A DNA stretch of 64,000 nucleotides from an uncultured virus (IMG/VR IMGVR_UViG_3300042465_003390) (IMGVR_UViG_3300042465_003390), one strand, 5' to 3'; counted from the first letter of the stretch, positions 19,131 through 59,345 are shown. Notes: generated from the letters alone by a model not told the origin. Program-made: numbers and translations.

Positions 19131-19192
19131 TATATATATAATACTTACTACGTCTTCCGACTTATATACACTATACATAACGTCTTCCGACT
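19131..19192. repeat. Dispersed repeat copy 1: (TA)5 + two ACGTCTTCCGACT units
   Basis: Matches 33861-33919; CGTCTTCCG units are 30 bp apart in both copies. Confidence 0.85.
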
Positions 19193-26893: not shown

Positions 26894-26960
26894 GCAAAAC
26901 GAAACTCCCGACGAAATTTCGCTGGGGTTTTTAGTTCACTTGAACTTTTTGGAGAGAACA

Positions 26961-37704: not shown

Positions 37705-38173
37705 TGACTTCAACGACAAGCACCTATGGTGCCAAGGCGGTCGCAAGCTTGAAGATAAGTTTGTCGCAGAGCGCAGGTTCAATGACGTACAGGTGAGGAT
37801 GAACCCTGCCAAAGAGCAGGACATCTTCACCTACGACATGCGAATCGATATGCCATGCGATCTCAAGACACTAACCACGCCGTGGATTTACTCCGAAAGA
37901 ATGTTCGGGATACCACCGACCTATGCGGTTTCCATTAACAGGAAAGACCTGCGCAGGTACTACCAGTTGTACCCAAACATCATCATCATACTGGACGTGC
38001 AGTACCCTGACTATCAGGGCACCCACTGGACAGACATGACCCGTCTAGAAAGCATGGTGCGATCTGGAAAAGTTCACTTGCACAAATACCAGACGCGCGT
38101 GGACGACACGCAAGGGAACGCCAAAGACAGTTACATCTTTGACGTTCGCTGGTTTCCTAAGCTGGCTCAGTAG
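37694..38173 (+). CDS. Hypothetical protein, possible PD-(D/E)XK fold
   Basis: G...E..F...YD......CDLKT pattern. Confidence 0.55.
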   Translation: MMFDDFNDKHLWCQGGRKLEDKFVAERRFNDVQVRMNPAKEQDIFTYDMRIDMPCDLKTLTTPWIYSERMFGIPPTYAVSINRKDLRRYYQLYPNIIIILDVQYPDYQGTHWTDMTRLESMVRSGKVHLHKYQTRVDDTQGNAKDSYIFDVRWFPKLAQ

Positions 38174-41100
38174 TCCATCAGGATTTGGTTGCCACGCAAG
38201 ATCAGCGCCTGCTTGCGCTCATCGAGTCGATCCATGATGGCCTTCTTTTGTTCATCAGCCATGTTCCGGTTGTCCCGCAGCCTGTTCATCTGCTGGTTCA
38301 CCTGACGGATCGCGTTGTCGATTGCACGAACACGGGGAAGATAGCGAAGCTCTTCGGCAAACTCTTCACGAGCAGCAAGCGCGCGCTCACGATCCTGATT
38401 GTCGATGGCCTCTTTGATCTCATCCCCTGCCAGCAAGATCGCATTGCGCTTTTCGATGTAGCGACCGTAGTCTTCGCGAGTCGATACGCTGCCAATGATC
38501 TTGCGGACGAACGGCACCTCTCGATAAAGCTCATCGTTCAAGCCCTCATCATAGACGCGGAAGGGAAGTTCCGCCGTGCGCTGCACGAAGCGTCCGACAC
38601 CGCCCGTCGCGAACTCCAACCAGAAGTTCAGGACATCTGGAGACGCATCGATAAAGCCGGGGATAGCAGAGGTGCCACCAGTAAGAGAGTTGATGTTCTG
38701 CGCCACCCAGATTGCAGACGGGTTTGTCGTTGACCAATAACGCTGACTGTCGGGCCCGCGTTCTCCGGGGAATGCCTCCTTGAAGATCGGCTTCTCAGCG
38801 AAGTCTTCGTTCTGGATGATGTCGATGAACGGATCGACAATCGTTGGGGCAGCAAAGTTGGCAAAGTTTTCAGACCCACCAAATGGATTAATCGTGTCAA
38901 CGATATTCCCAACGATGCTACCCGTTGCTTCACCTGCATCGTACTCGCCGCGCAATGCACGACTTGTGGCACGACCAATGTTGTGTGCCATGTTCAAGCC
39001 ATACGGCATGGGGATGGCAATGTAAGAGCGGTCTGTTAGGCCAAACGGATCAGGCAGAATGAAGTTATGCTCCAGAATGTAGTCTGGAATTTTGTCATAC
39101 TGCTTGGCTTCATCTTCATCCTCATCGGACAACAATGCGTTTAGCTGATCCTGCAGGAAGCCCGCACCAATCACGCCAGCCCAAATGAGCTGCACTTTCC
39201 GAGAGCGCAGCGCCGCGTTTAAAAGCGCAAACGAACCCTGAAGCGATGCGTTGTAGAACAGATAGAACGCATTCAGGAAGTTCTTGTACTCGCCGCCCTT
39301 GGCAAAGTTTACGGTTACATTGCGCGCAGCCTGCGCCGCTCGCTCACGGGTAAAGCCACGGTCGAGAAGCGCCTTGTATGCCGCGACACGGATGCCATTC
39401 TCAACCACTGTGTTGTAGTCTTCGATGAAGTTAAGGAGAGAAGCAGTGCCCTTTCCGACGAAGCTGTTCTTCACTTGGTTCCATTTACCACGGGCACCCT
39501 TGTCGGAGATGTCTCCGACCAGACCACGAATGTTCTCCATCTGATCCGCAACAGTGGACATCTGGTTCGTCACGTTCTGACCGCCAGCATTCACGAAGTC
39601 TTTGTAAATCTGCGACCACTCAGACGAATCATCATTGTTACGGATGGAACGCTTGATACCACCAAGAGCCTTACGAACGTCCTTAACAATCTGAGTTGTC
39701 AGACCCTGCTCATCGAACTGCTGGATGTTTACGCCTGCGCTTTGCAGGTCGCGAAGGAAGTTGGTGATAAAGAACTCAGGGTTATAGGACGTGTTGATAT
39801 TGGCTAGGTAGCGGTTCACCTGACCCATCGACCGCACAATGTAGCCCAGAGCGCCAGCACCTACGCCGTTGTCACCCTTGAGCGCAGCTCCAAGGTTCGG
39901 CTTGAATAGCTCGACGTACACATCTTTACCGTCCTCCTTCACAACAAAGATGTTCGGGTCTTGTGCTGCATTGAAGTCGGTGATCTGACGAACGCGCCCG
40001 CTTACCAAGGCACGGCGCTTGGGCGTCATGGTTTGGATTTCTGCGTATGCCTTTGTCCTTGATGGGTCTGAGCGAAGCAACTCCAAGAACGATTGACCGA
40101 CCTTGTTGCGTTCGCCACGAGACACAGACCTTTGGTTCTGGTTGATCAGGTTGGCCAGTACATCGGTGGCGTACTTGTAACGTCCAAGCGCACGAGGATC
40201 GGGGCGACCCTTGCCACCAAAACGCTGACCACCAGCCCCGGCTGTGGTGCCATCAGACTCAGCAGACTCTGGATCGAACATGCCGCGCAGAGGCACAAAG
40301 AATTCGTACTCTGGGCGACTGATAGTATCGCCATTCTCATCCACAATTTGATCGAATTGTGCAGGGATCAGGCCGCTTTCAACGCGAACGCGATTGGTGT
40401 CTGCCACAATGTTACGAGCCGCAGCATTGAGAGATGCGACTGCCGCAGTGTTGGCCGCATCCAATCCAGAGAACCACCGCAGGATGGCATTGGCTTCTGC
40501 GTCGGTCATGCCGGAGCCGCTGTCATTGGTCGGATCAATGGTACGGATATATTCGTTCCGCTCCTTCGCGTGCTTGGCGTATAGGTACGCTTCAGCCAAG
40601 GCCAGCTTGTCGCTGCCAGCGGACTCGCGTGCCTGTTTTACAAAGCCGTTTCGGGTGCCGGATGCAGCATCCGACACGCGCTGCAGTCCGTCGAGCATGC
40701 CAGCATTTACATTGAATGCCTTCACCGCATCGAGGGCATTCTTGTAGATGCCAACCTCGCGACGGTTCAGTTCACTGCCAACCACGCCATGATACAACTC
40801 CTCCTTCAGATAGGTATCCATGGCGTCAGTAATCGTCAGGCCGTTAGCCTGCAGTTCTTGGATCATGCGACCAACGGGCAGCACGTTGTCTTGGAACTTA
40901 CTCAGGATCGTGTCAGCCACTTTCTGCGCCTTGTCTGGCGTGGTTACGATACGCAGGCCCTTTGCTAGGAAATCTGATGCGCGCGCATAGTCTAGCTTCA
41001 GAGTCTTGGCCTGAACCTGAGGTGCCAAAGTTGCGGTGGTAGAGTACAGGCGACTATAGAGACGCCGCTGCTGTTCCTTGCGTTCTGGGGCTGCGCGATC

Positions 41101-44100
41101 TTTCTTCTTTAGGACGGGGAAGAATGTCTTGACGTAGTAAGCATCGCCAAGCGGGGCACCTCGCACCTCACTGCCGCGCTCAAGGACAAGAAGAAGCGGA
41201 GGAGAACTGAAGGCTAGATTGTTGCGCCACTCAAGGACGATGCCATCACGGCTGTTGTAGCCAACGACAGACTCGCCATCTTGATATCCTTGGTTCTGCC
41301 AACGCCGCATCAAGTCATAGATGGCATTCTCCACGCGCTTGTACTTGGAGTTCTCGATAAGCTCCCTGTCGTGCTGACGCTGTTGGATATGGAACAGTCC
41401 ATTGCCAACCTCGATACCGCTCTCATAGACGCGGTGCGAACCCTTCGGCAGAACAACGGGCAGCAAGCGGCCACGCTCCATGATGGAACCGTAGATCGGT
41501 GTCGGCCCTGCCTTGCTATCAACGGGCGCACGAGTGGGCATGTATGCCTCAGTCACGGGCATGCGCGAGTACATCTGCCTCGGCATCTCTGGATCGATCT
41601 CTGCGCCCTGCAGTGCCTGACGAACCTCGGCCCGCTCTTGGGGCGTCATGTTTGCTTCGATGGTATCTGTCTCAGGAACAAGCGTCAGTCTTCTTGGGGC
41701 GAAGAAGTCTCCCGCTTCTGGCTCTCGAACCAGTTCGCCAACCCTGCCGCCAGCATCTTGATCTCCTGCGAGTTGAGACTCGACGTCACGGACTCGGCTT
41801 CGTTCTGCCTCGGGGAGTGCGGCTTCAATTTTTGCATCGGATATTCCCTTCGCTTTGGCGATGGCAATGGCACCATCCGCATAGTCGTTGTCTTCACCAC
41901 GCCCACGCTTCACGCCGCCCGCATCGAAGATGCGCTTCTCTGCGTACCACATGAGGGCTTGGAAGTCGGCATTGGTAAGTTCCACACCAAGGTCACGTCT
42001 TAGGATTTCGCGGGCACGATTTGCTACATCACGCATAGCAGTGCGATCTTTCGAGTCCCTCGGTGCCTCCTCAAGAGACGGCTTTAGTTTCTTCACAAGG
42101 GTTGTCGCCGCCTTGGACATGGCTGGCTTTTCGGGGCGAGCCTCACGAGCAAGGCGCTTGACGCGCTCGGCATCCGGGCCGCGCACAGAACCTCTGACGA
42201 TCTCAAAGTCCATGCCTTCGTTCTGAAGGTCGCGGAGCTTGTCGTTGTAGGCCTTGTTGAAGAACTCCTTGTTCCAAACCTTGTCCATCTCGCTAGACAA
42301 AAGTGCAATGTCACTTCTTTCCAGCTTGGTCATGTTAAGGTTTTCTTGGGCACGACGAAGAATGTCGCGCTCCATATTTGTCAGGCCATCAGGATTGCTA
42401 ACGTAGCTCCACAGCTTGTTGAACGTATTGCCAAGGCTCTCCTCGGTGTGGATCACAAGCGGGTTTCCGGTGATGCGATTTACAAAGCGCATCCACCAGC
42501 GATCCATCGTCAGAGGGTTGAAGTTCCCACGCAGGTTTTGATAGAAGCCGTTGCCAATCTTCGGGCCAATGACGTATGCCACCGACACAACGGTGTCAGC
42601 CTCTTCCTTGGTGTCAGCTTGAACTGGCAGGTCTGCCAGACGGCGAACACCAAAGACTTCCTTCAGAATTTTGTTAACCTCTGAGCGCGGCAACTGCGTT
42701 GTGAGTAGCTGAGAGATTTGATTTGAGTCATACCCTACATCGACAAGCGCATTCCAGAACTCGAACGCAGACAGCATCGAGCCGCCCTGATCCCCCTTGC
42801 CAGTCACGGGGAACTTGCCATCTGGGCTGGCCTTCCACGCATCGTACTGCTCAGAGGCAAACTGATAGTTGTCCACAACGGCCATGCCATTGGAGGTAAC
42901 GGCAGTGGCGTAGTCAAAGGCATGCTCCGCTGCAGGATCATGCATCGGGTTGGCAGTGCCGTCAGGACGAGTGGGCGAAATCTCAGGGTACACAGGGTAC
43001 AGGATTTGCTTCGCCAACTTCAGTGTGCTGTCATACCAGCCCAGCGCATCGCGGCTCGACAGAAGCGCAGCCTCTGCCTCTGCAGCCATGATCTGCGCAA
43101 TCTCACGACGATCCGCTTCAGAGTTAACGATGTCGTATGTGCGCACGCCACGAAGCTCTAGCAGCTTGTTTGCAAAGCTTACCAAAGTTTCACTGCCCGC
43201 CTTCTTCTTGAAGAGCGGCTTGCCAGTGTTCGGGTTAAGATAGTCGATGATGCTTGCGGCTCTTTGTTCCGCAGTCAGCGGCACAACGAGGCGCGACTGG
43301 CGCGGACGTTCTAGTCCTCCAACAAGCTGTTCTTGGATGCGGGCACGACGTTGATCCCTTGCTTGCGCAAAGCGGCTACCAACCTCCGCAAGGTTTCTTT
43401 GGTATCCGACTGCGGCGTCACCCCGATAAGTTCCACTTTGTTTGAGTCGTTCGATTCCTGCATTTGTCCTGATCTCCTCAAAGTTATTCAGGTCAAAGAT
43501 TGCCAACTGGTCTGCAGCCTCGGCGATGTACAACGCCTCTTCCGCAGTGGGAACAATCAGTGTGTTGTCCAAGAAGTACTGCTGGCTCTGGCTGTCGAAC
43601 CATCCACCCAAGTAGACGGGACGACCGATTGCCCCTGCAATATCCTTGTTATCCTCTAGGTATCCTAATAGAACCTCTTCTGGCAAGGACTCACCGACAA
43701 TTATTTCGGCTTCTTTGAGGGGTGCCACGACAAACCCACCAGCGGCAGGATCAAATGTGGTAGGATCAATGGTAAACCCTTCAGGATTATTCCTGATAAA
43801 GTCACGCAAGCCCGCTACCGCAGGTGAGCGAGGCAACCTAGAAAACAAGGGGCGCTGCTCTGCTGGCGCATCCGGCATGTAATCATCGGAGGTAGATACA
43901 ATGGCCGAAGCTGAAGAAGCCGGGATTGCCGCGCTTAGTTGTTCGCGCGAAGTTTGCGGAACAACTCGTCCAGTTCCGGGCTGGCTAGTTCTCGCAAAGC
44001 TTTGCTCGGCTCTCGCTCCTCCACGCTCAGGATCGAATTGAGACCCCGAGAGCGGGTTTTTCCCAGAGATGTCGAGGATTCGCTTGGGCTCGTTGAGCCC

Positions 44101-47100
44101 ACCATTGTTGTCAATTTCTGCGTAACCATCAGCTATGCCCTCTTCTTTCATCCTATTGTACACAAGACGTGGACTGTTTCCAATGCTGTTAAAGTAACTT
44201 GGCGGAACAATCCTGCCAGTCCTGATGAATCGGCCAATCATACGGCGAAACGCTTCATCCGGGTCAACGTACATATTGACCAGTGAAACATCGTAGTCAG
44301 ACTCTTTAAGAGATTTAATCAAGTTGCGAATGCTTTTGTCGCTGTGACCAACCTTTTGAGCAACAAGGTTGTATCCCTCGTTTATCATTCTTTTTTGAGC
44401 TTCAGCGAGAAGCTCTACGCTTTCTTCGTGAACAGCCGCAGCGCCAATGCCGCCAGCATATTCTGGGATAAACGATTTCACCTGATCGGCATCAGGTATT
44501 GCTGCTTTGTTCGCTATAGCAAGTTCGTTTGCAATAGTTGACTTGCCAGCAGCGGGCGGGCCAATGAGAACAAAAGCCTTGCGCCCCCGCTCCGGCATCG
44601 ACAATGAGGTTCCAGTCTCGACATAGGGAAGACGAATAGCTTCCTCAACTATCACTGGCAAAAGACGCCCAGTGCCAACGACGGGAACACCTGAAACTTC
44701 GTACTTGCGATTGGTGTGCCAGCCAATAGAACCATAGGTTGGATTTTTTATTGTTTCCGGCCTAGACGACATATCCTCTACAATACGCAGAATCGCTGGG
44801 TGGTTTTCAATCTCACTTTTTGACGGATTTTTTCTAAGGAACAGGTCAAGATCATTGATGGCGTCCGCAATATTCTTGGGCATCAATGCCAACCGTGACT
44901 GCATAGGCGCAGCGGCGGCAGGTGCGACAGGTGCGGCAGGTGCCACTCGCTCACGGGCACCGATCTCACCACGGCGGATGCCTTGGAAGATATCCTCCAC
45001 ACGGGTGAAGCCCTGATCAACGTTCGCACCGATTAGAGCCTTGAAGAACTTCTTGATCTTCTCGAAGAAAGCACGCGGCCCACCGCCTAGCTTCAGACGG
45101 CCAGCCGTGTAGTCGCGAAACATTTCCGCAAAGGCTTCTTCTTTCTGCTGTGTCGGAGTGAGGTCTGGATACAGTTTATTTGCACGGTCAAGGTATGTGT
45201 AGTTCCGCTTTTGCGTACCGTCTTTTGTACGTTTGACGTACTTGGTCTTCTCTGCAAAACGCTCGAGAGTCTTCATCTCATTGGGCTTGAACAAACCCAT
45301 AGCCCGCAGCGCATGAACCACCTCATGGTTCATCACCTCAGAGGTGGCATCGAACAACTGTTGATCCGTCATCTTCGGATCATACAGGCCCATACCAAGG
45401 CTAAGCACCTTGGTAACTGGATCAAACATGCCCTCAGCACCCTCAATCCTTTGTGCGCCCTCAAGCTTTACATCTTTGAGGCCGAGACTGTTCAGTCGAG
45501 TTTGGAGTGCTTTGAGAACATTCGCTTGCTTTGCATTGAACGCCGGAGTGATCGGAGACACACCCTGATCTTCCTGCGCTTTAACCTGATCCGCTGCCGC
45601 ACGAGCGCGGGCTGCAGTAAGCTTACGCTCAATCTCACGCTGCCGTTCTTGCTCACGGAATTGCTCACCCTTTGCTTCCTGAAAAATCTTCTCAGGTGTT
45701 TTCAGGTTAGACTGCGCCTCACCAAGGCGCGTAGATACCTCAGCCTGCTGCTGCTGCAGCTTCTGCATCCGATCAAGTTCATTTGAACTTAGTGTCCGTT
45801 TTTTGGCCTGATCGTTAAGCTTGCGAACTTGCTTATTGATGGAGTTCAGTTGCTCCTTCTGCCCACGGATAGCGTTCTGTTGCGCCTCAAAGCGCGGACG
45901 CAGTGCTTCTACTGTGCCCTCAGCAATAGGCACAGCCTTCATCTGTGGCGGTATGCCAACCTTCTCAAAGCGAGGAACGTGCGTGTCCTGACCAAGTGTG
46001 CGCAGGCGCTGGTTTGCAAGCTCGATGCTTTGCTGGCTCTTCGCAATGCCCTGCTCTGTGCGGGCGATCTCTGCGTTCACCTGATCCGGCGTGACCTTGT
46101 TGCCGCTTAGATCGCGACCGTATGCTTCTGCCGCCTGCAGATCATAGCGCAGGCGCTCCAGCTTGGACTGATCCGCTTTGATGAAGTCTGCGGCGGTGTC
46201 GATCTGACGGCGGTAAGAAACGTCAGGCGTGTTTACTTCCGGTGCCAGAGCGTTCTTGGCGACGTACTTGCTCTTCTTTGCTACCGGATTTTCTACGACA
46301 AAATCGCGAGCCTGAAGCTCCTTCATGATGTCACGCACCTTGGGTACGGTAACATCAGGCATGTCAGCCTTTACGCGCTGTTGGATTGCAGGGATGTTGA
46401 TCTTCTTCCCGCTGGTAATGTCCGCCTTTACCTGCTGCAGAACACGCTCATACTGAGCCTTGTTAAAGCTCAGGTTAGCGAACTCTTCGTCAGCGATTGC
46501 GGTCTCGGGCGCAACATCAACAGTCTCAGGCGCAGGAAGCGCAAGGCGTTGCTGCGGCCCCTCAATGCCAAGCGGTGCATCAGGGTCAATGCCAGCGGAG
46601 GCAAGAGCCTTCGCACGATCTTCTGCAATCTGCCGCTCCGTTTCCTCGGCGAACTTAATCCTTCGATCACCCTCAAGGGTTAACTCTTTGTAGTCATCAT
46701 CGAGTTCCTTAGGCGCAACATCACGCTGCGCCACTCCACCAACGGCACCAATCGGGCCACCAAGAATACCAGCAGCCACACCAGCCTCGATGTATTCTTT
46801 GATGGCGTCATCACTGTCGATGGGCAGGCCAGCCTGTGCCCGCTCGATCATCTGCTGTGTGATTTCAGTTGGTACTTCTGTCGCCACACCAGTGGCAGCG
46901 CCCTTGCCTGCGCGCGCCCAGATACTGCCAACGCCGGGACGTATGGGTGCCAGAGCAAGGATGCGACCAGCGATACCTTCAATTGCAGCTTGACCACCAG
47001 CCGCCACTAGTGCGCGCTGGATATCCACGTTCTCCAGTTCACCTGCAGCAACCTGCTCTTCCTGACGCTGGACGTTGCCGCCAAACAACAGAGGGAAGGA

Positions 47101-47658
47101 TGCAACAGCACCGCCAACGACAGCACCAATGCCAGTACCAATGAGTGGCACAAACGACCCAGCCAAAGCGCCAGCGGCAGAACCAGCAAGTGTTGTTCCA
47201 AGGATTGGTGCCTGCTGTCCCGCAACCTCACCTGCATATGTGAGTGCTGTCCCAACGCCGCTGACATCTTCAAGTCGTGTAGGCGCTGTCTCTTCCTGCA
47301 GTTCACGGAGTCGCTGCTCTGCGGCAGTTTCCATGCCACGGCCAAACTCCTGCACGCCCTCGAAGCCAAGGCCGCGACCAGCTTCCTCAATCGAGGTGCC
47401 GAGCAACGAGCGAATGGACTGCACCCCGGTAGAAAGTCCACGACCGAAAGCCGTACCATCATCCTCTTCAACGGGAGCCTCGGGTGCTACAGGGGCGGGT
47501 GCGCCAAATCTTTCTGCAGAAAACCTTTCAAATTCTGCCTCTTTTTGCAGAACAAACTGATTTATTCTTTCCTGCTCTTGCGGGGTTGGGGTGTCTCCGG
47601 CGATGTTGATAGAATAAAGCGTACCCGAAACTTGGCCCGGAACCTGTATGATCGCCAT
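38167..47658 (-). CDS. Giant polyvalent internal virion/ejection protein (zincin protease, zeta-like kinase, further modules, LPD38-like C-terminus)
   Basis: 3163 aa; G/A-rich hydrophobic N-terminus; HEVVH + EEAFAE; GPPAAGKST; GPKIGNGFYQNL...TMDRWW; GLFHIQQRQH; C-terminal NP.F...NF.RD / TVNF..GG / FYNASLQG / IPMPYG. Confidence 0.8.
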   Translation of the reverse strand: MAIIQVPGQVSGTLYSINIAGDTPTPQEQERINQFVLQKEAEFERFSAERFGAPAPVAPEAPVEEDDGTAFGRGLSTGVQSIRSLLGTSIEEAGRGLGFEGVQEFGRGMETAAEQRLRELQEETAPTRLEDVSGVGTALTYAGEVAGQQAPILGTTLAGSAAGALAGSFVPLIGTGIGAVVGGAVASFPLLFGGNVQRQEEQVAAGELENVDIQRALVAAGGQAAIEGIAGRILALAPIRPGVGSIWARAGKGAATGVATEVPTEITQQMIERAQAGLPIDSDDAIKEYIEAGVAAGILGGPIGAVGGVAQRDVAPKELDDDYKELTLEGDRRIKFAEETERQIAEDRAKALASAGIDPDAPLGIEGPQQRLALPAPETVDVAPETAIADEEFANLSFNKAQYERVLQQVKADITSGKKINIPAIQQRVKADMPDVTVPKVRDIMKELQARDFVVENPVAKKSKYVAKNALAPEVNTPDVSYRRQIDTAADFIKADQSKLERLRYDLQAAEAYGRDLSGNKVTPDQVNAEIARTEQGIAKSQQSIELANQRLRTLGQDTHVPRFEKVGIPPQMKAVPIAEGTVEALRPRFEAQQNAIRGQKEQLNSINKQVRKLNDQAKKRTLSSNELDRMQKLQQQQAEVSTRLGEAQSNLKTPEKIFQEAKGEQFREQERQREIERKLTAARARAAADQVKAQEDQGVSPITPAFNAKQANVLKALQTRLNSLGLKDVKLEGAQRIEGAEGMFDPVTKVLSLGMGLYDPKMTDQQLFDATSEVMNHEVVHALRAMGLFKPNEMKTLERFAEKTKYVKRTKDGTQKRNYTYLDRANKLYPDLTPTQQKEEAFAEMFRDYTAGRLKLGGGPRAFFEKIKKFFKALIGANVDQGFTRVEDIFQGIRRGEIGARERVAPAAPVAPAAAAPMQSRLALMPKNIADAINDLDLFLRKNPSKSEIENHPAILRIVEDMSSRPETIKNPTYGSIGWHTNRKYEVSGVPVVGTGRLLPVIVEEAIRLPYVETGTSLSMPERGRKAFVLIGPPAAGKSTIANELAIANKAAIPDADQVKSFIPEYAGGIGAAAVHEESVELLAEAQKRMINEGYNLVAQKVGHSDKSIRNLIKSLKESDYDVSLVNMYVDPDEAFRRMIGRFIRTGRIVPPSYFNSIGNSPRLVYNRMKEEGIADGYAEIDNNGGLNEPKRILDISGKNPLSGSQFDPERGGARAEQSFARTSQPGTGRVVPQTSREQLSAAIPASSASAIVSTSDDYMPDAPAEQRPLFSRLPRSPAVAGLRDFIRNNPEGFTIDPTTFDPAAGGFVVAPLKEAEIIVGESLPEEVLLGYLEDNKDIAGAIGRPVYLGGWFDSQSQQYFLDNTLIVPTAEEALYIAEAADQLAIFDLNNFEEIRTNAGIERLKQSGTYRGDAAVGYQRNLAEVGSRFAQARDQRRARIQEQLVGGLERPRQSRLVVPLTAEQRAASIIDYLNPNTGKPLFKKKAGSETLVSFANKLLELRGVRTYDIVNSEADRREIAQIMAAEAEAALLSSRDALGWYDSTLKLAKQILYPVYPEISPTRPDGTANPMHDPAAEHAFDYATAVTSNGMAVVDNYQFASEQYDAWKASPDGKFPVTGKGDQGGSMLSAFEFWNALVDVGYDSNQISQLLTTQLPRSEVNKILKEVFGVRRLADLPVQADTKEEADTVVSVAYVIGPKIGNGFYQNLRGNFNPLTMDRWWMRFVNRITGNPLVIHTEESLGNTFNKLWSYVSNPDGLTNMERDILRRAQENLNMTKLERSDIALLSSEMDKVWNKEFFNKAYNDKLRDLQNEGMDFEIVRGSVRGPDAERVKRLAREARPEKPAMSKAATTLVKKLKPSLEEAPRDSKDRTAMRDVANRAREILRRDLGVELTNADFQALMWYAEKRIFDAGGVKRGRGEDNDYADGAIAIAKAKGISDAKIEAALPEAERSRVRDVESQLAGDQDAGGRVGELVREPEAGDFFAPRRLTLVPETDTIEANMTPQERAEVRQALQGAEIDPEMPRQMYSRMPVTEAYMPTRAPVDSKAGPTPIYGSIMERGRLLPVVLPKGSHRVYESGIEVGNGLFHIQQRQHDRELIENSKYKRVENAIYDLMRRWQNQGYQDGESVVGYNSRDGIVLEWRNNLAFSSPPLLLVLERGSEVRGAPLGDAYYVKTFFPVLKKKDRAAPERKEQQRRLYSRLYSTTATLAPQVQAKTLKLDYARASDFLAKGLRIVTTPDKAQKVADTILSKFQDNVLPVGRMIQELQANGLTITDAMDTYLKEELYHGVVGSELNRREVGIYKNALDAVKAFNVNAGMLDGLQRVSDAASGTRNGFVKQARESAGSDKLALAEAYLYAKHAKERNEYIRTIDPTNDSGSGMTDAEANAILRWFSGLDAANTAAVASLNAAARNIVADTNRVRVESGLIPAQFDQIVDENGDTISRPEYEFFVPLRGMFDPESAESDGTTAGAGGQRFGGKGRPDPRALGRYKYATDVLANLINQNQRSVSRGERNKVGQSFLELLRSDPSRTKAYAEIQTMTPKRRALVSGRVRQITDFNAAQDPNIFVVKEDGKDVYVELFKPNLGAALKGDNGVGAGALGYIVRSMGQVNRYLANINTSYNPEFFITNFLRDLQSAGVNIQQFDEQGLTTQIVKDVRKALGGIKRSIRNNDDSSEWSQIYKDFVNAGGQNVTNQMSTVADQMENIRGLVGDISDKGARGKWNQVKNSFVGKGTASLLNFIEDYNTVVENGIRVAAYKALLDRGFTRERAAQAARNVTVNFAKGGEYKNFLNAFYLFYNASLQGSFALLNAALRSRKVQLIWAGVIGAGFLQDQLNALLSDEDEDEAKQYDKIPDYILEHNFILPDPFGLTDRSYIAIPMPYGLNMAHNIGRATSRALRGEYDAGEATGSIVGNIVDTINPFGGSENFANFAAPTIVDPFIDIIQNEDFAEKPIFKEAFPGERGPDSQRYWSTTNPSAIWVAQNINSLTGGTSAIPGFIDASPDVLNFWLEFATGGVGRFVQRTAELPFRVYDEGLNDELYREVPFVRKIIGSVSTREDYGRYIEKRNAILLAGDEIKEAIDNQDRERALAAREEFAEELRYLPRVRAIDNAIRQVNQQMNRLRDNRNMADEQKKAIMDRLDERKQALILRGNQILMDY

Positions 47659-47672
47659 GACATTACCTCAGA

Positions 47673-49718
47673 TTATTGTGTGGCGTTATAATCAACTATT
47701 CCGCCCTGAACTGCAGCAAGATACTGATCCTCCAGTTGCTTTATAGTTACCTGCAGGTCGCGAGGTACACGACTGTAATCTTTTGTTGTGACTTCCTGCC
47801 CAAAATCATTCACAGAAGTTACTGTTGCCTGATCTTCCGCAATGCCACTGAAGTAATCAAGTATGCCTTTGAGTTCGGCAGGGCTTTGCCTCCGTGATCT
47901 ACCACCGCCAGAAGCACGAGAACGCTGAAGCCCAGCCTGAGCATTAAGGAGCGTCAAGATGTCCTTGTCGTAGGCACTGCGGGCTTGCTGCATGGCACCA
48001 ATCCCTGCAAGCCCAGCCTCACCAATAGCGCCACCAATGGTGGGCTGATCAGAAGCCATCAGTGCCAGACCAGTCTGGGCAAGAGCCAGCCACTTGTCCG
48101 CCTGAGCAGACTTCTCACGCTCTTCAATCATGCTGGCAACACGGCTTTCAATGGAGCCAAGGGCACCACCACCACCACCACCGCCGCCGCCGCCATCTGG
48201 AATGGCAGAAGTGGTCGTTGTTAGGTCAGGCTGCGTTGCAGCATCGGTCGCTGCAGTGCCGAACGAAAGCGGAATCCCGTCAGGGCCCACATCGACAGTG
48301 CCAGTATCAAGCGATCCAAGGCCATATGACAGACCCTGATCCCGCGTGCGTGGTGCTTCAGCAGAAGAAGAAGAAGCAGCGGCGTCTTCGCCACCTTCTC
48401 CAAGTACTCTTTCCCTAAAGTCTTGACCAGCGATATCGGCCTGCTCCCTAGCCCCGACTACAAATGACTCAGCTCCGGGAATGTATGTTGCAATATTTGC
48501 AAGGGTATCGGCACCTAAACCATACAAACCAGCGGTGGCACCGACGCCATAATCCGCAGCGGTTTCACCCACATCAGAGAGAAGACCTGTGGCAGCGTCA
48601 ATGCCACGCTGACGTTCTTGAGCCACAGCCATTTCTTCTGGGGTCATTACGTTTTCTACGCCACGAAACTGATTGTATGCCCGAAGACCCTCTCCGGAAC
48701 GCATGTACTCAGTCTCAGCGCGAAGACGCTCCATGGGGCTCATGGGCTGCGAGCGATCAGGTGGCGTGTAGAACGATGGCTCTTCGCTGGGAACAGGGCT
48801 TCCTTCCGGCACTGGAGGATACAGTGGCTGCGGGGGGGACGCCAAGCCTCCAGACTCAGGTGCAGTGGGGTCTGGGGCAAAGCGAGGCTGCTCGTCAAGT
48901 GACGCTCTGTAGTTTGCGGATAGGTCGGCATCAGTAGGAAGCAAAGCATTCTCGGCTTGCCGTTGCATCATACGACGATACATCGCTTCATTTTCTGGAA
49001 CACCAGAAAGGTTCATTTGCTGCAAGAAGGACGAATATCCCTGTTCGCGATCAGCCTCCGAAACACCCGCTGGAAGAAAGTCTTCTACATTTGTGCTGAC
49101 CTGTGACAGCATGGGCTGTGTCGCATCAAACACATCGGTGCGAACCCCTTGGGGCTCACGACTTGCGAGCAGACGTTCGATGCTTCTGGCCCGCGTTTCT
49201 GGCGGAAGGGATGCAATGTACTCATCCACAGTCACACCCATGCGCTCTGCCATGGCTCGGACTGTAGGGTCGCTAGCAAGGACGCTGGAAAAGTTTTGTT
49301 GCGAGTATCCCACCAACGATTGGCTGTCTGGGAACCCACCAACCTGCATCTTCCGCACATACCCACCGTCGTACATGCCCTGCACTGGCATCTCTTGAGG
49401 CTGTGGCGCACGGGTCGCCTCGGCCTGCATCATATCATTGACGCCAGTATCTTGTGCAATTGCACTTCTCGGGGCCATTGCCTGAGAGATACCCATGATG
49501 CCTTCCTGCGGCATGCCCGCCGCAGTGACGGCCTCTTCAGCCACGGTCTGCATGCCCTGTGCCTGCTGACGCTGATACTCATCGCGCATCCGCTTGCGGC
49601 GTTTTAGTTCACTCAAGACAAGGAACTGAGGCGCAGTGCCAGTCGGCATCTGCATTTCCTGCATCAAAGACTGTTCAGGCAAATCCTTCAGACGTTCCTG
49701 TAGATCGATGATGTTCAT
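47673..49718 (-). CDS. Putative internal virion (ejection) protein
   Basis: Low complexity; P.FLVLSELKRR N-terminus; LAL...GLA.MA...IG.AG..G C-terminal segment; located next to the giant protein. Confidence 0.6.
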   Translation of the reverse strand: MNIIDLQERLKDLPEQSLMQEMQMPTGTAPQFLVLSELKRRKRMRDEYQRQQAQGMQTVAEEAVTAAGMPQEGIMGISQAMAPRSAIAQDTGVNDMMQAEATRAPQPQEMPVQGMYDGGYVRKMQVGGFPDSQSLVGYSQQNFSSVLASDPTVRAMAERMGVTVDEYIASLPPETRARSIERLLASREPQGVRTDVFDATQPMLSQVSTNVEDFLPAGVSEADREQGYSSFLQQMNLSGVPENEAMYRRMMQRQAENALLPTDADLSANYRASLDEQPRFAPDPTAPESGGLASPPQPLYPPVPEGSPVPSEEPSFYTPPDRSQPMSPMERLRAETEYMRSGEGLRAYNQFRGVENVMTPEEMAVAQERQRGIDAATGLLSDVGETAADYGVGATAGLYGLGADTLANIATYIPGAESFVVGAREQADIAGQDFRERVLGEGGEDAAASSSSAEAPRTRDQGLSYGLGSLDTGTVDVGPDGIPLSFGTAATDAATQPDLTTTTSAIPDGGGGGGGGGGALGSIESRVASMIEEREKSAQADKWLALAQTGLALMASDQPTIGGAIGEAGLAGIGAMQQARSAYDKDILTLLNAQAGLQRSRASGGGRSRRQSPAELKGILDYFSGIAEDQATVTSVNDFGQEVTTKDYSRVPRDLQVTIKQLEDQYLAAVQGGIVDYNATQ

Positions 49719-53269: not shown

Positions 53270-54157
53270 TCATTTGAACCTTTGTTGTTTGGGCGCTTTG
53301 CTGAACAGCTTCTCCATAGTCCTTGGGCCAACGATGCCATCAGCCGTTAGCCCATTGGCAGCCTGCCACTTCTTAACGGCAGCTTCTGTTCCGGGCCCAA
53401 AGTCTCCGTCAGATTTGATGCCAAGCGCAGCCTGCATCTTCTTGACAGCATCCCCCTTTGAGCCCTTGCGTAGAGTTCCAACAGGGGCCGCTGGAGCGGC
53501 GGCAGGAGCGGGCGCAGTGACGGCCCCGCCCATAGCTGCCATGGCCTTGGCATAGCGTGCCTGACGATCTGCGAGGCCAATGTCGCCGCCGTTGATGATT
53601 TTGGTGAGACGTGTCACGTCGCCTGTGTCCGCAACGTCATTTAGGTTGCGGCTGCCCCAGAACCACAGCGCGCTCTCAAGTGCACCCTTCTTGGTTAAAA
53701 GATACTCAGCAGCTTCTTCAGCAGTCATGCCAACGGTCTTGCCGAATGCGGTCGTATTCGCACGGCCAGTAACTTGTTTCAGACCTTTTCCTCTGAATAA
53801 AAAACCATCCCCCTCTTTTTGGTTGCCTAAAGCACCAGCCTTGGAGCGGTTCTTATCCATGTAGACATAGTTGGCGATCTTCTCAGGCTTGCCTGCATAC
53901 TCGGCGGCGTTCTCTTTGCCGGGGCCAAAGTATCGCGGGAACACGCGCAGGAGTGTGGCCTCCCTGTAGTTCAGGTTCTCTTCCAACACGCGGAAGTCCA
54001 TGCTCTCATGGGCGCACTGGCTGACAAAGCTGGCAATGCGCTTGTCGGTGGTGATGCCATACTTCGGCAACATCTCATTCAATGCTTCACACCACTCCTC
54101 GACCTCCTTGTTAGTCGGAATCATGGCGCGCAGTTGATCTACGGTTAGCAGGGTCAT
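53270..54157 (-). CDS. Endolysin: GH19 lysozyme/chitinase + peptidoglycan-binding domain
   Basis: QCAHES...EENLNY, GDG..FRG.GL.QVTGR.N, TK.INGG..GL.DR; LRKGSKG.AV...DG.FGP.T...DGIVGP.T. Confidence 0.9.
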
Positions 54158-55506: not shown

Positions 55507-56337
55507 TTACTGAGGTGACATGAAACGATTACGCATGCTCATAAGGCCGCCCATGCTAGGCTTTGTGCCAGAAAAACCGGGCAATGGTCTATTGTTTACT
55601 TGGCTTGGCAGAGGCATAGGCCGTGGCGTCTGAGGCTGCACCGTTCCACCGCCCTTGCCCGCACTCATTCTGGACAGTATTGACGCAACTTCATTTGGGC
55701 CGACTTGTGGCGGAGTCTGTGGAAGCATGCCTTGCGCCATCTCGTTGATGCGTTGGCGCTCAGCCACGCTCATCATCTCCATGGGGCGATCCATCAGGCG
55801 CTGAGAACCACCAAGGCGCGAGTAGTTCTGAGCTGCGTACTGGAATGCAGGGCTTACATTGGGATTCTGCTGCATTGGCAAGCTACCAAGACCCTGCTGA
55901 TACGGCATCATCTGATACGGAACCTGCCCAGCGCCACGCTGAGATTCAAAAATACGCAGAGCCTCACGGCGCATCTCTGGTGTAACCTGAGGCGGTGGCG
56001 GCGGAGTTACTGGGCCCGGTGTGATGGGCATCGTGGTAATTGGCGGCTCAACTGGCAACGTGGCACGGGGCGGCGGATTGTCAGTCATGTCACGTCTTCC
56101 GGGATCGCGATCAGCTTGTCCCCGATTACGTTCCATCGTCGCTGCAGTGCGAGATTGGAAGTCCCGGATTTGACCTTGAGTGTAGCCTCTGTTCGAAAGG
56201 TTCGAGGCTTGCTTGTCTCGCGATGCAAACGGGCCCGCTGCAAACCCCATGGCTACGTCTCTGGCAATGCCCTGACCCACGCCGCGAATACCCTCTCCGG
56301 GTGCACTTCTTTCACTTCTGTCTCGGCCCAGTCCCAT
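55507..56337 (-). CDS. Pro/Gln/Met-rich low-complexity protein
   Basis: 276 aa with an RBS; likely disordered. Confidence 0.6.
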   Translation of the reverse strand: MGLGRDRSERSAPGEGIRGVGQGIARDVAMGFAAGPFASRDKQASNLSNRGYTQGQIRDFQSRTAATMERNRGQADRDPGRRDMTDNPPPRATLPVEPPITTMPITPGPVTPPPPPQVTPEMRREALRIFESQRGAGQVPYQMMPYQQGLGSLPMQQNPNVSPAFQYAAQNYSRLGGSQRLMDRPMEMMSVAERQRINEMAQGMLPQTPPQVGPNEVASILSRMSAGKGGGTVQPQTPRPMPLPSQVNNRPLPGFSGTKPSMGGLMSMRNRFMSPQ

Positions 56338-56367: not shown

Positions 56368-56667
56368 CTATGTCGTTGTCACGGTAACGGAGCCGACAAG
56401 GCCAGTGCCAGACGACCCACGAACGTGTGGTGTGTTTTCCTCAGTGATCTTAACATAACCACCGTGGTTAAATATAGCCCCGGTTTCCAAGCCAGAATCA
56501 TCGGTCTGGAGATTGGTGAAAACAGTAAATGTATTCCGTCCCTCGCCGGGATTGCGCGCCTGATCCAGATACAATGAGAACGCGCGGATGACCTCGTTAA
56601 AGTACTTCTGATCGTACTCTTTCGGAGGAATTGGAAAGTATGGCGCTGGTACAAGCCTGTTCGACAT
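56368..56667 (-). CDS. Putative tail-associated protein
   Basis: PP.EYD..YF N-terminus; coupled to tail tube B. Confidence 0.6.
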   Translation of the reverse strand: MSNRLVPAPYFPIPPKEYDQKYFNEVIRAFSLYLDQARNPGEGRNTFTVFTNLQTDDSGLETGAIFNHGGYVKITEENTPHVRGSSGTGLVGSVTVTTT

Positions 56668-58586
56668 CAGCGTCTACCATCAGGCCTGATATCAATACTT
56701 GGCGAACCAAGTCTCCATCCAACCCCCGTCGTCAAGGACTCAACCCGGAGCGCCATCGATCTGCCCCGCAGTCTGACATACACCTGATTGGTGAACTGTT
56801 CGACTGGGGTTGATGATGTCTTGGTGACAATCTCGTTGTCATCCTGAAGATAAGCACCGCCGGGGAAGTTTCGTGCCTTCATTGTGAACACCACAGATGG
56901 TGATGTTGCGCTAGAATTCCTGAAGGTGATGTCAGGGATCAAACGGCCAACGAAGCTAAAGTTATTGCCATCAGCGATGTCAAACGGGCTTGACTCGATG
57001 TAGGCATTGATTGCCGTAGCGGGCGACGTGCTGCCGTCGTCAAAACCGCTCTCATGGTAGTACAGGTAGCCATCCAAGCCCGCAGCTATTGGAAGCCCAA
57101 AAACGCCACGGTCGATCCACGCGCTGCGCGCTATCGATCCGTAATACCAGATGTTCTGTTCGTAGTTATAAACGACATAGCGATCTAGTACGTTGCTGTT
57201 GGCTGATGGGTAGAACCACCAGATTTCAGCAAACGATGCATTGGTAGAGCAGAAGACTTTCTCGATTTGATTCGAGTTGAAATCTGAGAAAACATAGTCC
57301 CTGACAGAACAAGGAAGCTTCTGCACAGAGCCGTTGTAAACATAAAACTCTGTTTGCCCCATCCAGTAGACAGTGTCATCTACAGCTACAATTGCATTCG
57401 GCCCAGCAATGGTTGTGCCCTCTGCCATCATATTAATGCCGAATGTAAACGGCGGGCCGAGGTACTGCATCGCGTGAACTGAGATGTCTGTCAGCACGAG
57501 TATCTGCTGGCGCGTTTCAACGGCAGTAACGATTCGCGATCCAGAACCAATGAGCAAATCACCTGCTGTGTTTGTAGTTGTTGGAGTCCAGTCTGCTGCG
57601 TTTTCTTGATCGGAGAAACGGATGAGCAACGGGTCTTGCGTTGATGAGCCAAGTGGGTTGCACCCAAAGGCGATAACATGCCTATCCACATCAGAAACAA
57701 TAATCTTGGCAGCAACAGTTGGAGCGTTGCTGGCACCACTCAGTGCCGTCAATGGAACGGCTCTCTGCGCAAGGGGTGTTGCTACAGAAGCATCCCAGTA
57801 ATAGATGCCACCATTATAGATGTTCATGATGAGGTCTTCACCGAAGTTGTCGTGCGACCATACGCGAAGCGTATCCGTCAAGGCGTCAATGGATGCGCCG
57901 GAGCCCCAAGTGCCACGGCCCCAAAATGACGCTCCCCATCCGTTCCCATAAAGGGAAGTGTTGAGACCAGTATTGATCTGATAGGCACCAACAACAGACG
58001 CGCCACCATCTCCGCTGTCAGATGCGTTGGCAAGCACAGGCACGGGTGTGTACTGCCCATCAACTGTAATGTCCGCCACTGTGTTCACAGCACGAGCGAC
58101 AATGGTGTATGAGTTGTCGTTGACGATTGTTGCAATCTGATACTCTTGGTTCAGGATTGCGGCGGTGATGTTGCCACCTAAGCTGGTGGCGCCCGTGAAG
58201 GTGACAAAGTCGCCAGCGACAGCACCATGTGCCGTGTCAGAAATCGTAAGAACAGATGATCCGTCAGTTGCAGCAAAGGTCACACCTCCGGCAGTTGTCG
58301 TTGCCCTGATTGGTGTGATGTCGTAGTAGCCTTCACCTTCTTCGATGTAGTACTTGAGGTTCGTGCCAAGACCCAGATAGTTGTCTAGGTTAATTGTTCG
58401 CCACGAATGCAGAGCACGGCACGTTCCCAAGAAGGATTTCAGGCCAAGCCGAACCCAACCGCCAATCTTCTCTGGATAACCAGCGCGAAAGCGCATCTTG
58501 TCCACGTCAAACCAGCCACCCTCATTACTGTATGAGGTTGATTCACGGTTGATGCCGGGCTGGAACTGGAGCTTTGAGAGCGGCAT
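56667..58586 (-). CDS. Tail tubular protein B / stabilisation (nozzle) protein
   Basis: F.PGINRE.T.Y..EGGW...RFR.G.PEKIGGW...IRFSDQE...EIWWFYPS...RLRGR...WRLG...I.PDGRR. Confidence 0.75.
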   Translation of the reverse strand: MPLSKLQFQPGINRESTSYSNEGGWFDVDKMRFRAGYPEKIGGWVRLGLKSFLGTCRALHSWRTINLDNYLGLGTNLKYYIEEGEGYYDITPIRATTTAGGVTFAATDGSSVLTISDTAHGAVAGDFVTFTGATSLGGNITAAILNQEYQIATIVNDNSYTIVARAVNTVADITVDGQYTPVPVLANASDSGDGGASVVGAYQINTGLNTSLYGNGWGASFWGRGTWGSGASIDALTDTLRVWSHDNFGEDLIMNIYNGGIYYWDASVATPLAQRAVPLTALSGASNAPTVAAKIIVSDVDRHVIAFGCNPLGSSTQDPLLIRFSDQENAADWTPTTTNTAGDLLIGSGSRIVTAVETRQQILVLTDISVHAMQYLGPPFTFGINMMAEGTTIAGPNAIVAVDDTVYWMGQTEFYVYNGSVQKLPCSVRDYVFSDFNSNQIEKVFCSTNASFAEIWWFYPSANSNVLDRYVVYNYEQNIWYYGSIARSAWIDRGVFGLPIAAGLDGYLYYHESGFDDGSTSPATAINAYIESSPFDIADGNNFSFVGRLIPDITFRNSSATSPSVVFTMKARNFPGGAYLQDDNEIVTKTSSTPVEQFTNQVYVRLRGRSMALRVESLTTGVGWRLGSPSIDIRPDGRR

Positions 58587-58595
58587 TGTGGCATC

Positions 58596-59345
58596 CTAGA
58601 GCATGGCGTTTGTTTTTGTCATGTCTGCCCGCGTGTACCGCTGATAACCAGAGATTTCAGGCATCGGCACGGTGACAATCTCCGCATTGGTTTCAATGGC
58701 CACGGACGTAGCAACATCCATAAAGGACTGAACGTTTCCTGTTCCTAAGTTATACACGCCGCAAACGTCCAAGTCAAAGAAGCGTTTATGAACCTCAATC
58801 AACCGCTCCACTGGCACAAAGTCTCGGAAAAATCCCTCGCTGCCCTCAAACACCCTGATTACGCCGTCAGCCGCTGCCTGTCTGCGGAACAAACTGTGCG
58901 GCGATGGCTGATCTTTATGATCCTCGTGCGGGCCGTAGACGTTGAAGTAGCGAAAGAGCTGGACGGGAATGCCCCAGTTGTGCCGCTCGACGTATTTCTC
59001 CACGATGAACTTAGACAGCGCGTAAGGGTTCAATGGCTGCGGCTTGTCGGTCTCGACAAAGGTGGTGTTGTCCGGGCCATAGACGGCAGCCGACGAGGCG
59101 ATCTGGATGGGGATGCCACGCTCCTCGCAGGCTGTGATAAGGCGCACGGAGGAGATGACGTTCTGCCGCAGGAGCGCATCCCAATCCCGGCACGCAGTGC
59201 TGCTGATCGCGCCGAGGTGGATGACCCGCTCAATGCCGTCAAGGTTTGGCTCGCCGTCGCCCCACTCGTGGCCTACGGCGTCTGGCAGAGCGGCCAACAT
59301 GTTCTGCCCAATGAAGCCCCTATGTCCGGTGATTAGGATAGGCAT
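58596..59345 (-). CDS. hldD: ADP-L-glycero-D-manno-heptose 6-epimerase-like (extended SDR)
   Basis: ITG..GFIG, HLGAISST, ASSAAVYG, YALSK, RYFNVYGP.EDHK, RDFV.V, YQ.YT.AD. Confidence 0.78.
   Translation of the reverse strand: MPILITGHRGFIGQNMLAALPDAVGHEWGDGEPNLDGIERVIHLGAISSTACRDWDALLRQNVISSVRLITACEERGIPIQIASSAAVYGPDNTTFVETDKPQPLNPYALSKFIVEKYVERHNWGIPVQLFRYFNVYGPHEDHKDQPSPHSLFRRQAAADGVIRVFEGSEGFFRDFVPVERLIEVHKRFFDLDVCGVYNLGTGNVQSFMDVATSVAIETNAEIVTVPMPEISGYQRYTRADMTKTNAML

Follow-up and report, generated by a model that had tools for sequence, protein, structure and literature searches.

The giant polyvalent protein encoded in IMGVR_UViG_3300042465_003390, an uncultured virus from IMG/VR of which a stretch of 64,000 nucleotides (hereafter the window) was analysed, carries a short peptide tag, [QFY]SR[LM], at five places along its chain, each at the start of a module. 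The tags are kept at equivalent places in relatives, lie in linkers and delimit cassettes that have been gained and lost. The same chain contains a zincin-like metallopeptidase, and from the sequence and the modelled structures we tentatively propose, with somewhat less than even confidence, that the tags are self-processing sites cut by the protein's own zincin. The gene and its five tags (J1 to J5) lie as follows.

38167..47658, minus strand: P0001, the giant open reading frame (ORF), 3163 amino acids (aa), the largest gene of the phage.
44890..44907, minus strand: J1, PMQSRL, aa 918-923, Ser 921, first base of the Ser codon at 44898.
43834..43851, minus strand: J2, PLFSRL, aa 1270-1275, Ser 1273, first base of the Ser codon at 43842.
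43288..43305, minus strand: J3, PRQSRL, aa 1452-1457, Ser 1455, first base of the Ser codon at 43296.
41560..41577, minus strand: J4, QMYSRM, aa 2028-2033, Ser 2031, first base of the Ser codon at 41568.
41047..41064, minus strand: J5, RLYSRL, aa 2199-2204, Ser 2202, first base of the Ser codon at 41055.

The tripeptide SR[LM] occurs exactly five times in P0001, preceded each time by Q, F or Y, and all five copies are at the places where a first-pass annotation of this DNA had put them. In its wider form the tag of P0001 reads [P/R]-[M/L/R]-[Q/F/Y]-S-R-[L/M]. In 2000 composition-preserving shuffles of the 3163-aa protein, SR[LM] appeared in 1.17 copies on average and reached five copies in a fraction of 0.006, and [QFY]SR[LM] appeared in 0.14 copies on average and never five times (0/2000). 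It should be noted that the motif was defined after being seen, so that the shuffle figure alone proves little and conservation in homologues is the stronger test. The Ser codons of J1 to J5 (TCA/TCT/TCG/TCG/AGT), the Arg codons (CGG/AGG/CGC/CGC/CGC) and the Leu or Met codons (TTG/TTG/CTC/ATG/CTG) differ among the five tags, which indicates that the repeat exists at the level of the protein and is not a DNA repeat. This lack of a common DNA sequence argues against reading the tags as boundary marks that are neutral or tied to recombination and that persist because modules are shuffled at those points.

Homologues were gathered with a word-indexed search, which gave 399 proteins of 1739-5536 aa at E<=1e-3, the best 120 of the 399 being listed. 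A diversity alignment of 30 sequences chosen from these 120 provided 135 aligned junction sites, and two further alignments of 44 sequences each were used to call invariant positions. The tag is present at equivalent places in most lineages among the 120 homologues listed; for instance, P0037 (47% identity) carries ARQSRLA, VKFSRLP, FRQSRLT, QRFSRMV and VRASRMF. Across the 30 diverse homologues the Ser is kept at 132 of the 135 sites, the Arg at 111 with Lys at 9 more, and L, I, M or V two residues past the Ser at 132. Directly before the Ser (-1) Q, F or Y predominate, and one place further back (-2) R, K, M or L do. This core is conserved amid variable, indel-rich flanks. J1 could be aligned in 20 of the 30 homologues (S in 20/20, R in 19/20) and J2 in 25 (S in 23, R in 25, L/I/V in 25), and in the alignments of 44 sequences S1455 (J3) and S2202 (J5) are invariant and S2031 (J4) and R1456 (J3) are at least 90% conserved. 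On these alignments the family-wide tag is [R/K/M/L]-[Q/F/Y]-S-[R/K]-[L/I/M/V]. The conservation of the motif at junctions, which the first-pass annotation had made a condition of its proposal, is thus found in homologues down to ~45% identity, and insertions in the homologues are concentrated at aa ~910-950, ~1270, ~1450 and ~2190-2210.

The units of the chain into which the tags fall, with the assignments discussed further below, are the following.

45559..47658, minus strand: N-terminal region, aa 1-700, described from hydropathy windows and a coiled-coil profile match.
44944..45534, minus strand: zincin-like metallopeptidase domain, aa 709-905, recognised from its AlphaFold2 (AF2) fold and invariant residues.
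45313..45327, minus strand: HEVVH, predicted zinc-binding and catalytic motif, aa 778-782.
45124..45141, minus strand: EEAFAE, candidate third zinc ligand, gluzincin-like, aa 840-845, on a later helix.
44107..44595, minus strand: Zeta-toxin-like P-loop kinase cassette, aa 1022-1184, in a variable slot at aa ~924-1270.
43312..43824, minus strand: module 3, aa 1279-1449, alpha/beta, GGFVVAPLKEAE...YLGGWFD...QLAIFDL, predicted local distance difference test score (pLDDT) 62-84.
41770..43284, minus strand: module 4, aa 1459-1963, helical, probably HhH-GPD DNA-glycosylase-like, AF2 block means mostly >70.
41107..41544, minus strand: module 5, aa 2039-2184, small alpha+beta, with GLFHIQQRQH.
38170..41046, minus strand: C-terminal conserved region, aa 2205-3163, with LPD38 at aa 2852-3034 (38557-39105).

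Two AF2 models built with family alignments, covering aa 690-1889 (mean pLDDT 62.5) and aa 1440-2639 (mean pLDDT 71.0), place the tags relative to the folded parts of the chain. J1 falls within aa 906-934, a segment with pLDDT <50 (block mean 27), and J2 closes a long low-confidence stretch at aa 957-1277 (block mean 38), the next fold beginning at ~aa 1279. This stretch spans the zeta domain, where few sequences are aligned, and the model is uninformative on that domain. J3 sits in a coil of 16 residues that links a long helix to module 4 (block means 56-59), J4 is in a coil about eight residues before module 5 (block mean 74), and J5 is inside the low-confidence aa 2184-2229 (block mean 32). 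Four tags (J1, J2, J3 and J5) are thus in low-confidence, non-regular segments and J4 in a coil, and each later unit opens with a tag 4 to 10 residues ahead of its fold. Other flexible stretches, such as aa 1964-1990 and several in the C-terminal unit, are untagged. The position of each tag just before a fold, together with these untagged stretches, suggests that the tags mark a specific subset of boundaries; the claim that they stand at module boundaries agrees both with the AF2 linkers and with the indel hot spots of the homologues.

A tag at a fixed short distance from each module is also what an uncut start handle would look like, that is, a peptide that binds a shared partner or aids ordered unfolding, threading and refolding through the tail channel. 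Candidate partners would be the capsid interior, the portal, the neighbouring 649-aa and 681-aa proteins or a chaperone, and the alternating pattern of basic or aliphatic, aromatic, Ser, basic and aliphatic residues would suit beta-strand addition. Against this, AF2 gives no confident packing of the tags on the following module, J4 perhaps excepted, and flexible linkers within the N- and C-terminal units are untagged, a distribution that fits release points better than threading aids. We consider such a handle unlikely, while keeping it as a serious alternative.

The segments between tags have been exchanged in several lineages. Against the 120 homologues listed, BLAST homology breaks at query aa 923-968, ~1231-1239, ~1430 and 2190, and these breaks lie beside J1, J2, J3 and J5, in the linkers and not right at the tags. 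P0003 has no zeta cassette, its J1 and J2 being ~66 aa apart, and in P0021 J3 follows 28 aa after J1. Likewise, P0046 has a 200-aa insert flanked by MFSRLPSP and RQSRLTLP, an insert of ~300 aa at J3 in P0068 has EKYSRVATG at its start and PFYSRTIRL after its end, and in the P0026 group the whole of aa 927-2190 gives way to other modules that bear tags of their own (VMLSRLPTL, with KRYSRLPTD in part of the group). The expected gain and loss of cassettes between motifs was therefore seen in the homologues. The further claim of a swappable set of effectors holds for one slot, aa ~921-1273 after the zincin (occupied here by the zeta kinase), which is the only highly variable one and is deleted or replaced in many homologues; it was overstated for modules 3 to 5, a conserved core in most of the family whose wholesale replacement is confined to one lineage. 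In 16 cassette-variant homologues Pfam recognised LPD38 alone, and the alternative cassettes gave no match.

Exchange of cassettes between tags is what the recombination-mark reading would predict, and demarcation motifs such as VENN in CdiA do occur at swap points. The breakpoints, however, miss the tags: they fall in the linkers, 12-40 aa before a tag or a few residues past it, and tags are also kept between core modules, where no swapping is seen. We regard this explanation as very improbable.

Two contents of tagged slots deserve mention as observations in their own right. In P0002 and P0082 the zeta slot (aa ~930-1000) holds another cassette (…IRMPINPN…PWHDASHIRDSYRFKTVI…) with no Pfam match, which resembles RelA/SpoT-type nucleotidyltransferases by eye; the top BFVD match of the model is a giant phage protein named RelA/SpoT. 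In the more distant P0140, an ART-PolyVal domain (ADP-ribosyltransferase) at aa 1378-1587 occupies a slot bounded by LYSALPRTT and RYSKLPRTA, and here the tags enclose another effector.

The protease that would act on the tags is predicted from invariant residues and from the model. H778, E779 and H782 of HEVVH are invariant in the 44 sequences and lie on model helix 76-97, and E840, E841, A842, A844 and E845 are likewise invariant and lie on model helix 146-162. Of 121 proteins, 118 carry HExxH; the remaining three are missing the N-terminal part. The pLDDT block means are 74-93 over most of aa ~710-850, with a drop at ~850-890 and a confident helix at ~887-896. In the AF2 model the topology is an N-terminal helix, three strands, the HExxH helix and the later EEAFAE helix, which agrees with the metallopeptidase (MPTase) topology described by Iyer et al. 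(PMC5512222). The best Foldseek match for the domain is the minigluzincin selecase (probability 0.96, E 0.5, from a 1200-residue query), and neither 1200-residue model gave a Foldseek match at E<=0.001. With VIA-align, model residues 1-216 matched anthrax lethal factor (Z 7.1, root-mean-square deviation 4.5, 153 residues aligned), PprI/IrrE (6.8), Acel_2062 (6.6), PPEP-3 (6.3), Wss1 (6.1 and 5.9), SPRTN (5.9), selecase (5.3) and ArdC (5.3); these Z values are middling, yet mutually consistent and consistent with the invariant residues. No Pfam peptidase family matched the domain at E<=0.1, and the family profile found no PDB sequence match to the zincin. The first-pass reading of HEVVH with the downstream EEAFAE as a zincin is supported by the invariant catalytic residues and the zincin-like fold. 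When the zincin (aa 699-905) was docked with the J3 segment (aa 1437-1476), alignments being supplied for both, the score of 0.09 fell short of the 0.32 mark, which is evidence neither way.

To follow the tag beyond the close family, an exhaustive HMMER search was made with aa 1001-2200, which gave 4565 proteins at E<=1e-3, the best 150 representatives of the 4565 being listed. Modules 3, 4 and 5 were mapped onto 141 new representatives and yielded 49 usable module starts, a start being usable when the first 40 positions of the module were covered by the alignment and at least 45 residues lay upstream. Within 45 aa upstream, [FY]S is found at 34 of the 49 starts, against a mean of 8.9 and a maximum of 14 in random windows from the same distant proteins (200 draws), and [KR][FY]S at 22, against a mean of 1.6 and a maximum of 6, whereas S[RK][LIMV] is found at just 9 of 49. 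The Ser is mostly 3-10 residues ahead of the module start, and three unrelated module families retain the tag in distant representatives. The prevalence of [FY]S and [KR][FY]S and the rarity of S[RK][LIMV] suggest that the ancestral tag was nearer to [K/R]-[F/Y]-S and that SR[LM] is the version of the local clade. Lineages appear to have flavours of their own, such as x-[FY]-S-x-[LI]-P in P0140, K-[FY]-S-L in P0169 and [KR]-[FY]-S-[KL]-[DE] in P0231. Starts in proteins with a homologous zincin have [FY]S in 27 of 34 cases and [KR][FY]S in 21 of 34, compared with 7 of 15 and 1 of 15 in proteins without one; this association is confounded by common descent, and several of the zincin-less proteins have another architecture (module 4 followed by a C-terminal HExxH) and no tags at all.

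A conserved extended motif at module starts in a protein with a built-in protease makes a processing site the most economical reading. Under this proposal the protein, which is probably carried inside the phage head and expelled along with the DNA, as suggested by LPD38-terminated relatives, would consist of a constant N-terminal unit (aa 1-~920) with a membrane-active region and a gluzincin-like metallopeptidase, a variable cargo slot holding a zeta-type kinase here, three conserved enzyme-like modules and a constant 960-aa LPD38 unit. The zincin would cut at the tags during or after ejection and would release six pieces, at about aa 1-921, 922-1273, 1274-1455, 1456-2031, 2032-2202 and 2203-3163. 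The aliphatic residue after Ser-Arg would suit the S1' pocket of a zincin, with the cut falling at R|L, and the more deeply conserved aromatic-Ser pair could form the flanks of the cut. Extended to the whole of this large ejection-protein family, the module-start tag may be a private cutting code for the embedded zincin that yields a programmed enzyme set, namely the membrane and protease unit, a kinase, a glycosylase-like enzyme, an RNase-like enzyme and a channel unit; we hold this broader version to be doubtful.

Several observations weigh against self-processing. P0231 (2838 aa, LPD38) bears seven [KR][FY]S tags but lacks HExxH, and a profile search detected no zincin in it. Conversely, Ruegeria phage 45A6 has a homologous zincin, matched by the family profile at an independent E of 3e-17, beside its LPD38 unit and has no tags, its counts being 0 for [KR][FY]S and 4 for S[RK][LIMV] against 3.8 expected. 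In the P0082 clade (~20 near-identical representatives) the zincin, the Ser and the aliphatic residue are kept and the tag Arg is lost (KQSAI, KRSKV, KFSQI and KLSAL). Untagged modules exist, among them an insert of ~130 aa in P0103 and, in P0026 and P0021, the ~200-aa domain that immediately follows the zincin. No genes split at tags were found, either with module 3 (3 short matches) or in a search for shorter proteins (14); the ends of the short homologues look like contig truncations, since they begin at the first in-frame Met, and P0070, P0110 and P0129 start in or beside a tag owing to a Met in the tag or its flank. A dialect test gave a within-protein similarity little above that between proteins (0.31 vs 0.25 at +1, 0.49 vs 0.40 at +2), with noisy site picking. 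From the literature, N4 vRNAP, ArdC and TraC1, which are MPTase-bearing polyvalent proteins, are delivered uncut (PMC5512222), and the metallopeptidase of the phi24B protein gp47 has been proposed by its authors to degrade peptidoglycan (10.64898/2026.04.10.717836). The zincin-less but tagged P0231, the zincin without tags in 45A6, the untagged modules, the lack of split genes and the uncut MPTase proteins are what hold our confidence in self-processing below an even level. In a covariation test of zincin residues against the tag Arg at +1, a single clade supplied 7 of the 12 non-Arg proteins and the numbering was unreliable; the test gave nothing usable.

The tags of P0231 in the absence of a zincin, the uncut travel of N4 vRNAP and the other MPTase proteins (PMC5512222) and the lack of genes split at tags would all suit the start handle. 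P0231 and 45A6 together would also suit cutting in trans by a host protease or by an unrecognised separate phage protease, the zincin then digesting peptidoglycan or host targets, in line with the cell-wall role assigned by the phi24B authors (10.64898/2026.04.10.717836). The tag itself offers a further argument for a protease in trans, in that an invariant Ser after an aromatic residue or Gln would suit enzymes that take Ser at P1'. Herpesvirus assemblin and 3C-like enzymes are proteases of this kind. Evidence from the window runs the other way: no prohead or other protease was found among 43 ORF products (PHROGs) or 29 (Pfam), a divergent one being possible, for example at 13453-14406, and no tag is present in the capsid protein or the scaffold-position ORFs, the portal having one non-matching SRL (EISRLAKD), although these proteins are the usual targets of prohead proteases. 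Moreover, the tag differs between phage lineages that probably share host groups. Cutting in trans seems improbable on this balance. Self-cleavage through a Ser nucleophile was set aside, as the residues before the tags are variable and disordered. The Ser-nucleophile self-cleavage sites of the Nup98/ZU5 type ('HFS') lie inside a folded beta-sandwich.

If the tags are cut by the embedded zincin, the units released would include several predicted enzymes. The zeta-like kinase and the LPD38-like C-terminus, both of which had been predicted, are found by Pfam above the family cut-offs: Zeta_toxin at E 2.4e-14 (53.7 bits vs a cut-off of 22.3, with the P-loop GPPAAGKS present) and LPD38 at E 1.5e-36. 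Module 3 gave no usable ESM Atlas match, and its stand-alone homologues are not convincing (3 short matches only). Module 4 is probably HhH-GPD glycosylase-like, a grading kept at probable by the lack of a sequence match and the helical fold. Its VIA matches comprise ~20 HhH-GPD superfamily members over model residues 71-487 (Z 5.8-9.0, in a range below 13 that may be unspecific for helical models), with queuine-salvage DUF2419 (9.0), Tm1821 OGG (8.8) and NTHL1 (8.0) at the top, followed by the phage thymidine-hypermodification enzyme PaMx11 gp46 (7.6), EndoIII (7.1) and MutY. Two invariant motifs, GPKIGNGF (aa 1698-1705) and TMDRWWMR (aa 1717-1724), are 12 residues apart, with 19 residues from K1700 to D1719, and we take them to resemble the hairpin-Lys and Asp motifs of endonuclease III. 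Module 4 alone matched nothing among PDB sequences at E<=10. Module 5 is a weak candidate for a toxin-RNase-like domain: its VIA match is 7m5f_A, a chain of a Serratia marcescens contact-dependent inhibition (CDI) complex (Z 6.6, 115 of 119 residues aligned), and its ESM Atlas leads (EndoU_bacteria, Ntox35 and RNAse_A_bac) all score <0.9.

At the ends of the chain, the C-terminal unit has PHROG matches 14770/616/10691 and is 28-29% identical to giant proteins of Ruegeria phage 45A6, Vibrio phages and Shiga toxin (Stx) phages over 87-95% of its length and ~25% identical to Ralstonia 'DarB-like' proteins; it is shared also with Burkholderia 'DarB-like' proteins. Its fold match to the PhiM1 ejectosome 8vb2 is weak (Z 5.1). 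The N-terminal region has Gly/Ala-rich hydrophobic segments at ~aa 152-197, 216-236 and 289-311 by hydropathy windows and a coiled-coil-like stretch at ~aa 465-700, the family profile matching only coiled coils in the PDB (profile positions 465-547). No tag was found inside aa 1-700.

These predictions matter in several ways. The family supplies exact candidate cut sites, five here and conserved in hundreds of relatives (of the 399 homologues, the 120 listed were scanned), and the natural variants with tags and no zincin, with a zincin and no tags, or with a tag lacking Arg make the processing idea directly testable. Cargo that had no name can now be annotated, on the basis of the models, as a putative HhH-GPD glycosylase-like module and a putative toxin-RNase-like module, which, if injected with the DNA, would be early host-takeover or anti-defence enzymes. 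Should the tags be left uncut, a conserved module-start handle in a 3163-aa chain would bear on packing and on threading through the tail.

The window is the genome of a tailed phage or a large part of one. PHROG and Pfam scans identify a small terminase (20563-21114), a large terminase (17496-19178), an SU10-like portal (15041-17485), two SU10-like adaptors (5787-6443 and 6969-7652) and a capsid protein (11439-12344), and tail fibres and a lysin are also encoded. Replication and recombination genes sit on the plus strand, and the giant gene ends a run of minus-strand genes that includes, besides a 649-aa and a 681-aa protein without annotation immediately upstream of it, the following.

56667-58586, in the minus-strand run: virion structural protein.
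53270-54157, in the minus-strand run: lysozyme-like protein with a peptidoglycan-binding domain.

No close cultured phage was found at the DNA level (megablast of 20 kb against 50,697 phage records). The 681-aa protein (47673-49718, minus strand) has a run of 11 Gly and a tag-like KDYSRVPRD 32 aa from its end, which is probably incidental, as three related viral contigs have KDYSRVSPAV, YDYSSVPSD or nothing at this place. A Pro/Gln/Met-rich, low-complexity protein of 276 aa (55507-56337, minus strand) contains the tag-like NYSRLGGS and ILSRMSAG and has no family match. Between the portal and the scaffold- and capsid-position ORFs lies a 317-aa ORF (13453-14406, minus strand; phrog_28737, function unknown, no Pfam match), which may be the candidate place for any divergent prohead protease of this phage. 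Three RCC1-like repeat proteins on the minus strand (664-1824, 1825-3219 and 62170-63384) put fibre-like genes at both ends of the window; their repeats of ~50 aa (150-nucleotide period, 17 detectable copies) probably belong to tail fibres. No terminal duplication of the window was seen, all long direct repeats being these 150-nucleotide RCC1 repeats. A block of sugar or modification enzymes within the structural gene run (58596-62166, minus strand) encodes an NAD-dependent epimerase/dehydratase, the C-terminal part of a PfkB-like kinase, a heptose-phosphate kinase/adenylyltransferase-like protein and a 2-oxoglutarate (2OG)-Fe(II) oxygenase-like protein, and could serve virion or DNA modification. 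On the plus strand, at 25874-28088, an ATPase (phrog_1297) stands beside a large HNH endonuclease-like protein (phrog_1314).

Comparison with known systems places P0001 among several partial parallels. MARTX toxins and viral polyproteins combine several effectors with an embedded protease and have short recognisable sites in inter-domain linkers. P0001 has the embedded protease and the repeated linker motif of such self-processing polyproteins; they differ in using a cysteine protease domain (CPD) or a 3C-like protease, whereas P0001 has a zincin and a predicted delivery by the phage virion, and its cleavage is proposed. In T4, phiKZ and SPN3US, a prohead protease cuts packaged or ejected proteins at short consensus motifs. 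That protease is a separate one that also cuts capsid proteins, whereas the phage of P0001 has no such enzyme among the ORF products scanned and no tag in its capsid protein or portal. A short conserved peptide at the start of a variable module is known from polymorphic toxins, as VENN in CdiA and DPxGL in Rhs. These peptides mark a single C-terminal toxin, whereas P0001 and its relatives have five or more tags along the whole chain, with no conservation among the tags at the DNA level.

Among cultured phages, giant LPD38 proteins that share the homologous ~900-aa C-terminal unit include phi24B gp47/933W L0134, the Ralstonia 'DarB-like' proteins and 45A6 ANH49087. The 45A6 protein shares the zincin as well, and the portal and adaptor of the phage encoding P0001 are SU10-like. 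Burkholderia phage JC1 gp69 (Bcep22 gp75-like) resembles P0001 in the shared Pfam LPD38. The LPD38 isolates have no excess of tags ([KR][FY]S 0, 0, 1 and 3 times vs 1.2-1.7 expected), and their cargo differs from that of P0001, with methylase/helicase or LPD5/LPD1 domains and, in Vibrio phage D80, no HExxH. By mass spectrometry, phi24B gp47 (2811 aa; LPD5, LPD1, LPD38 and a metallopeptidase) was detected in purified virions, and its authors propose it as an ejection protein (10.64898/2026.04.10.717836); JC1 gp69 (4515 aa, LPD38) was also detected in purified virions by this method (PMC9144972, Table 6).

P0001 is a giant polyvalent protein: it joins several biochemically disparate domains in one chain (zincin, zeta kinase, HhH-GPD-like, RNase-like and LPD38), it carries a large polyvalent protein associated domain (LPD38, 126.7 bits vs a cut-off of 27), and its fold matches in BFVD are giant proteins from uncultured phages named for a 'large polyvalent protein associated domain'. 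In the literature searched, with subscription journals and supplementary files outside its scope, we found no description of a concrete conserved junction code such as the one proposed here. The general idea that a zincin processes polyvalent proteins is already published: Iyer, Burroughs, Anand, de Souza and Aravind proposed in 2017 that the MPTase processes these proteins into functional units (PMC5512222). The proteins they described are, like P0001, giant multidomain phage proteins with a zincin, a zeta-type kinase, a BECR-like RNase candidate and LPD38 (PMC5512222). They differ in that the main text gives no cleavage or junction motif, the words 'cleavage site' occurring there just once, in the title of a reference, whereas the family of P0001 has a defined and conserved tag at its module starts.

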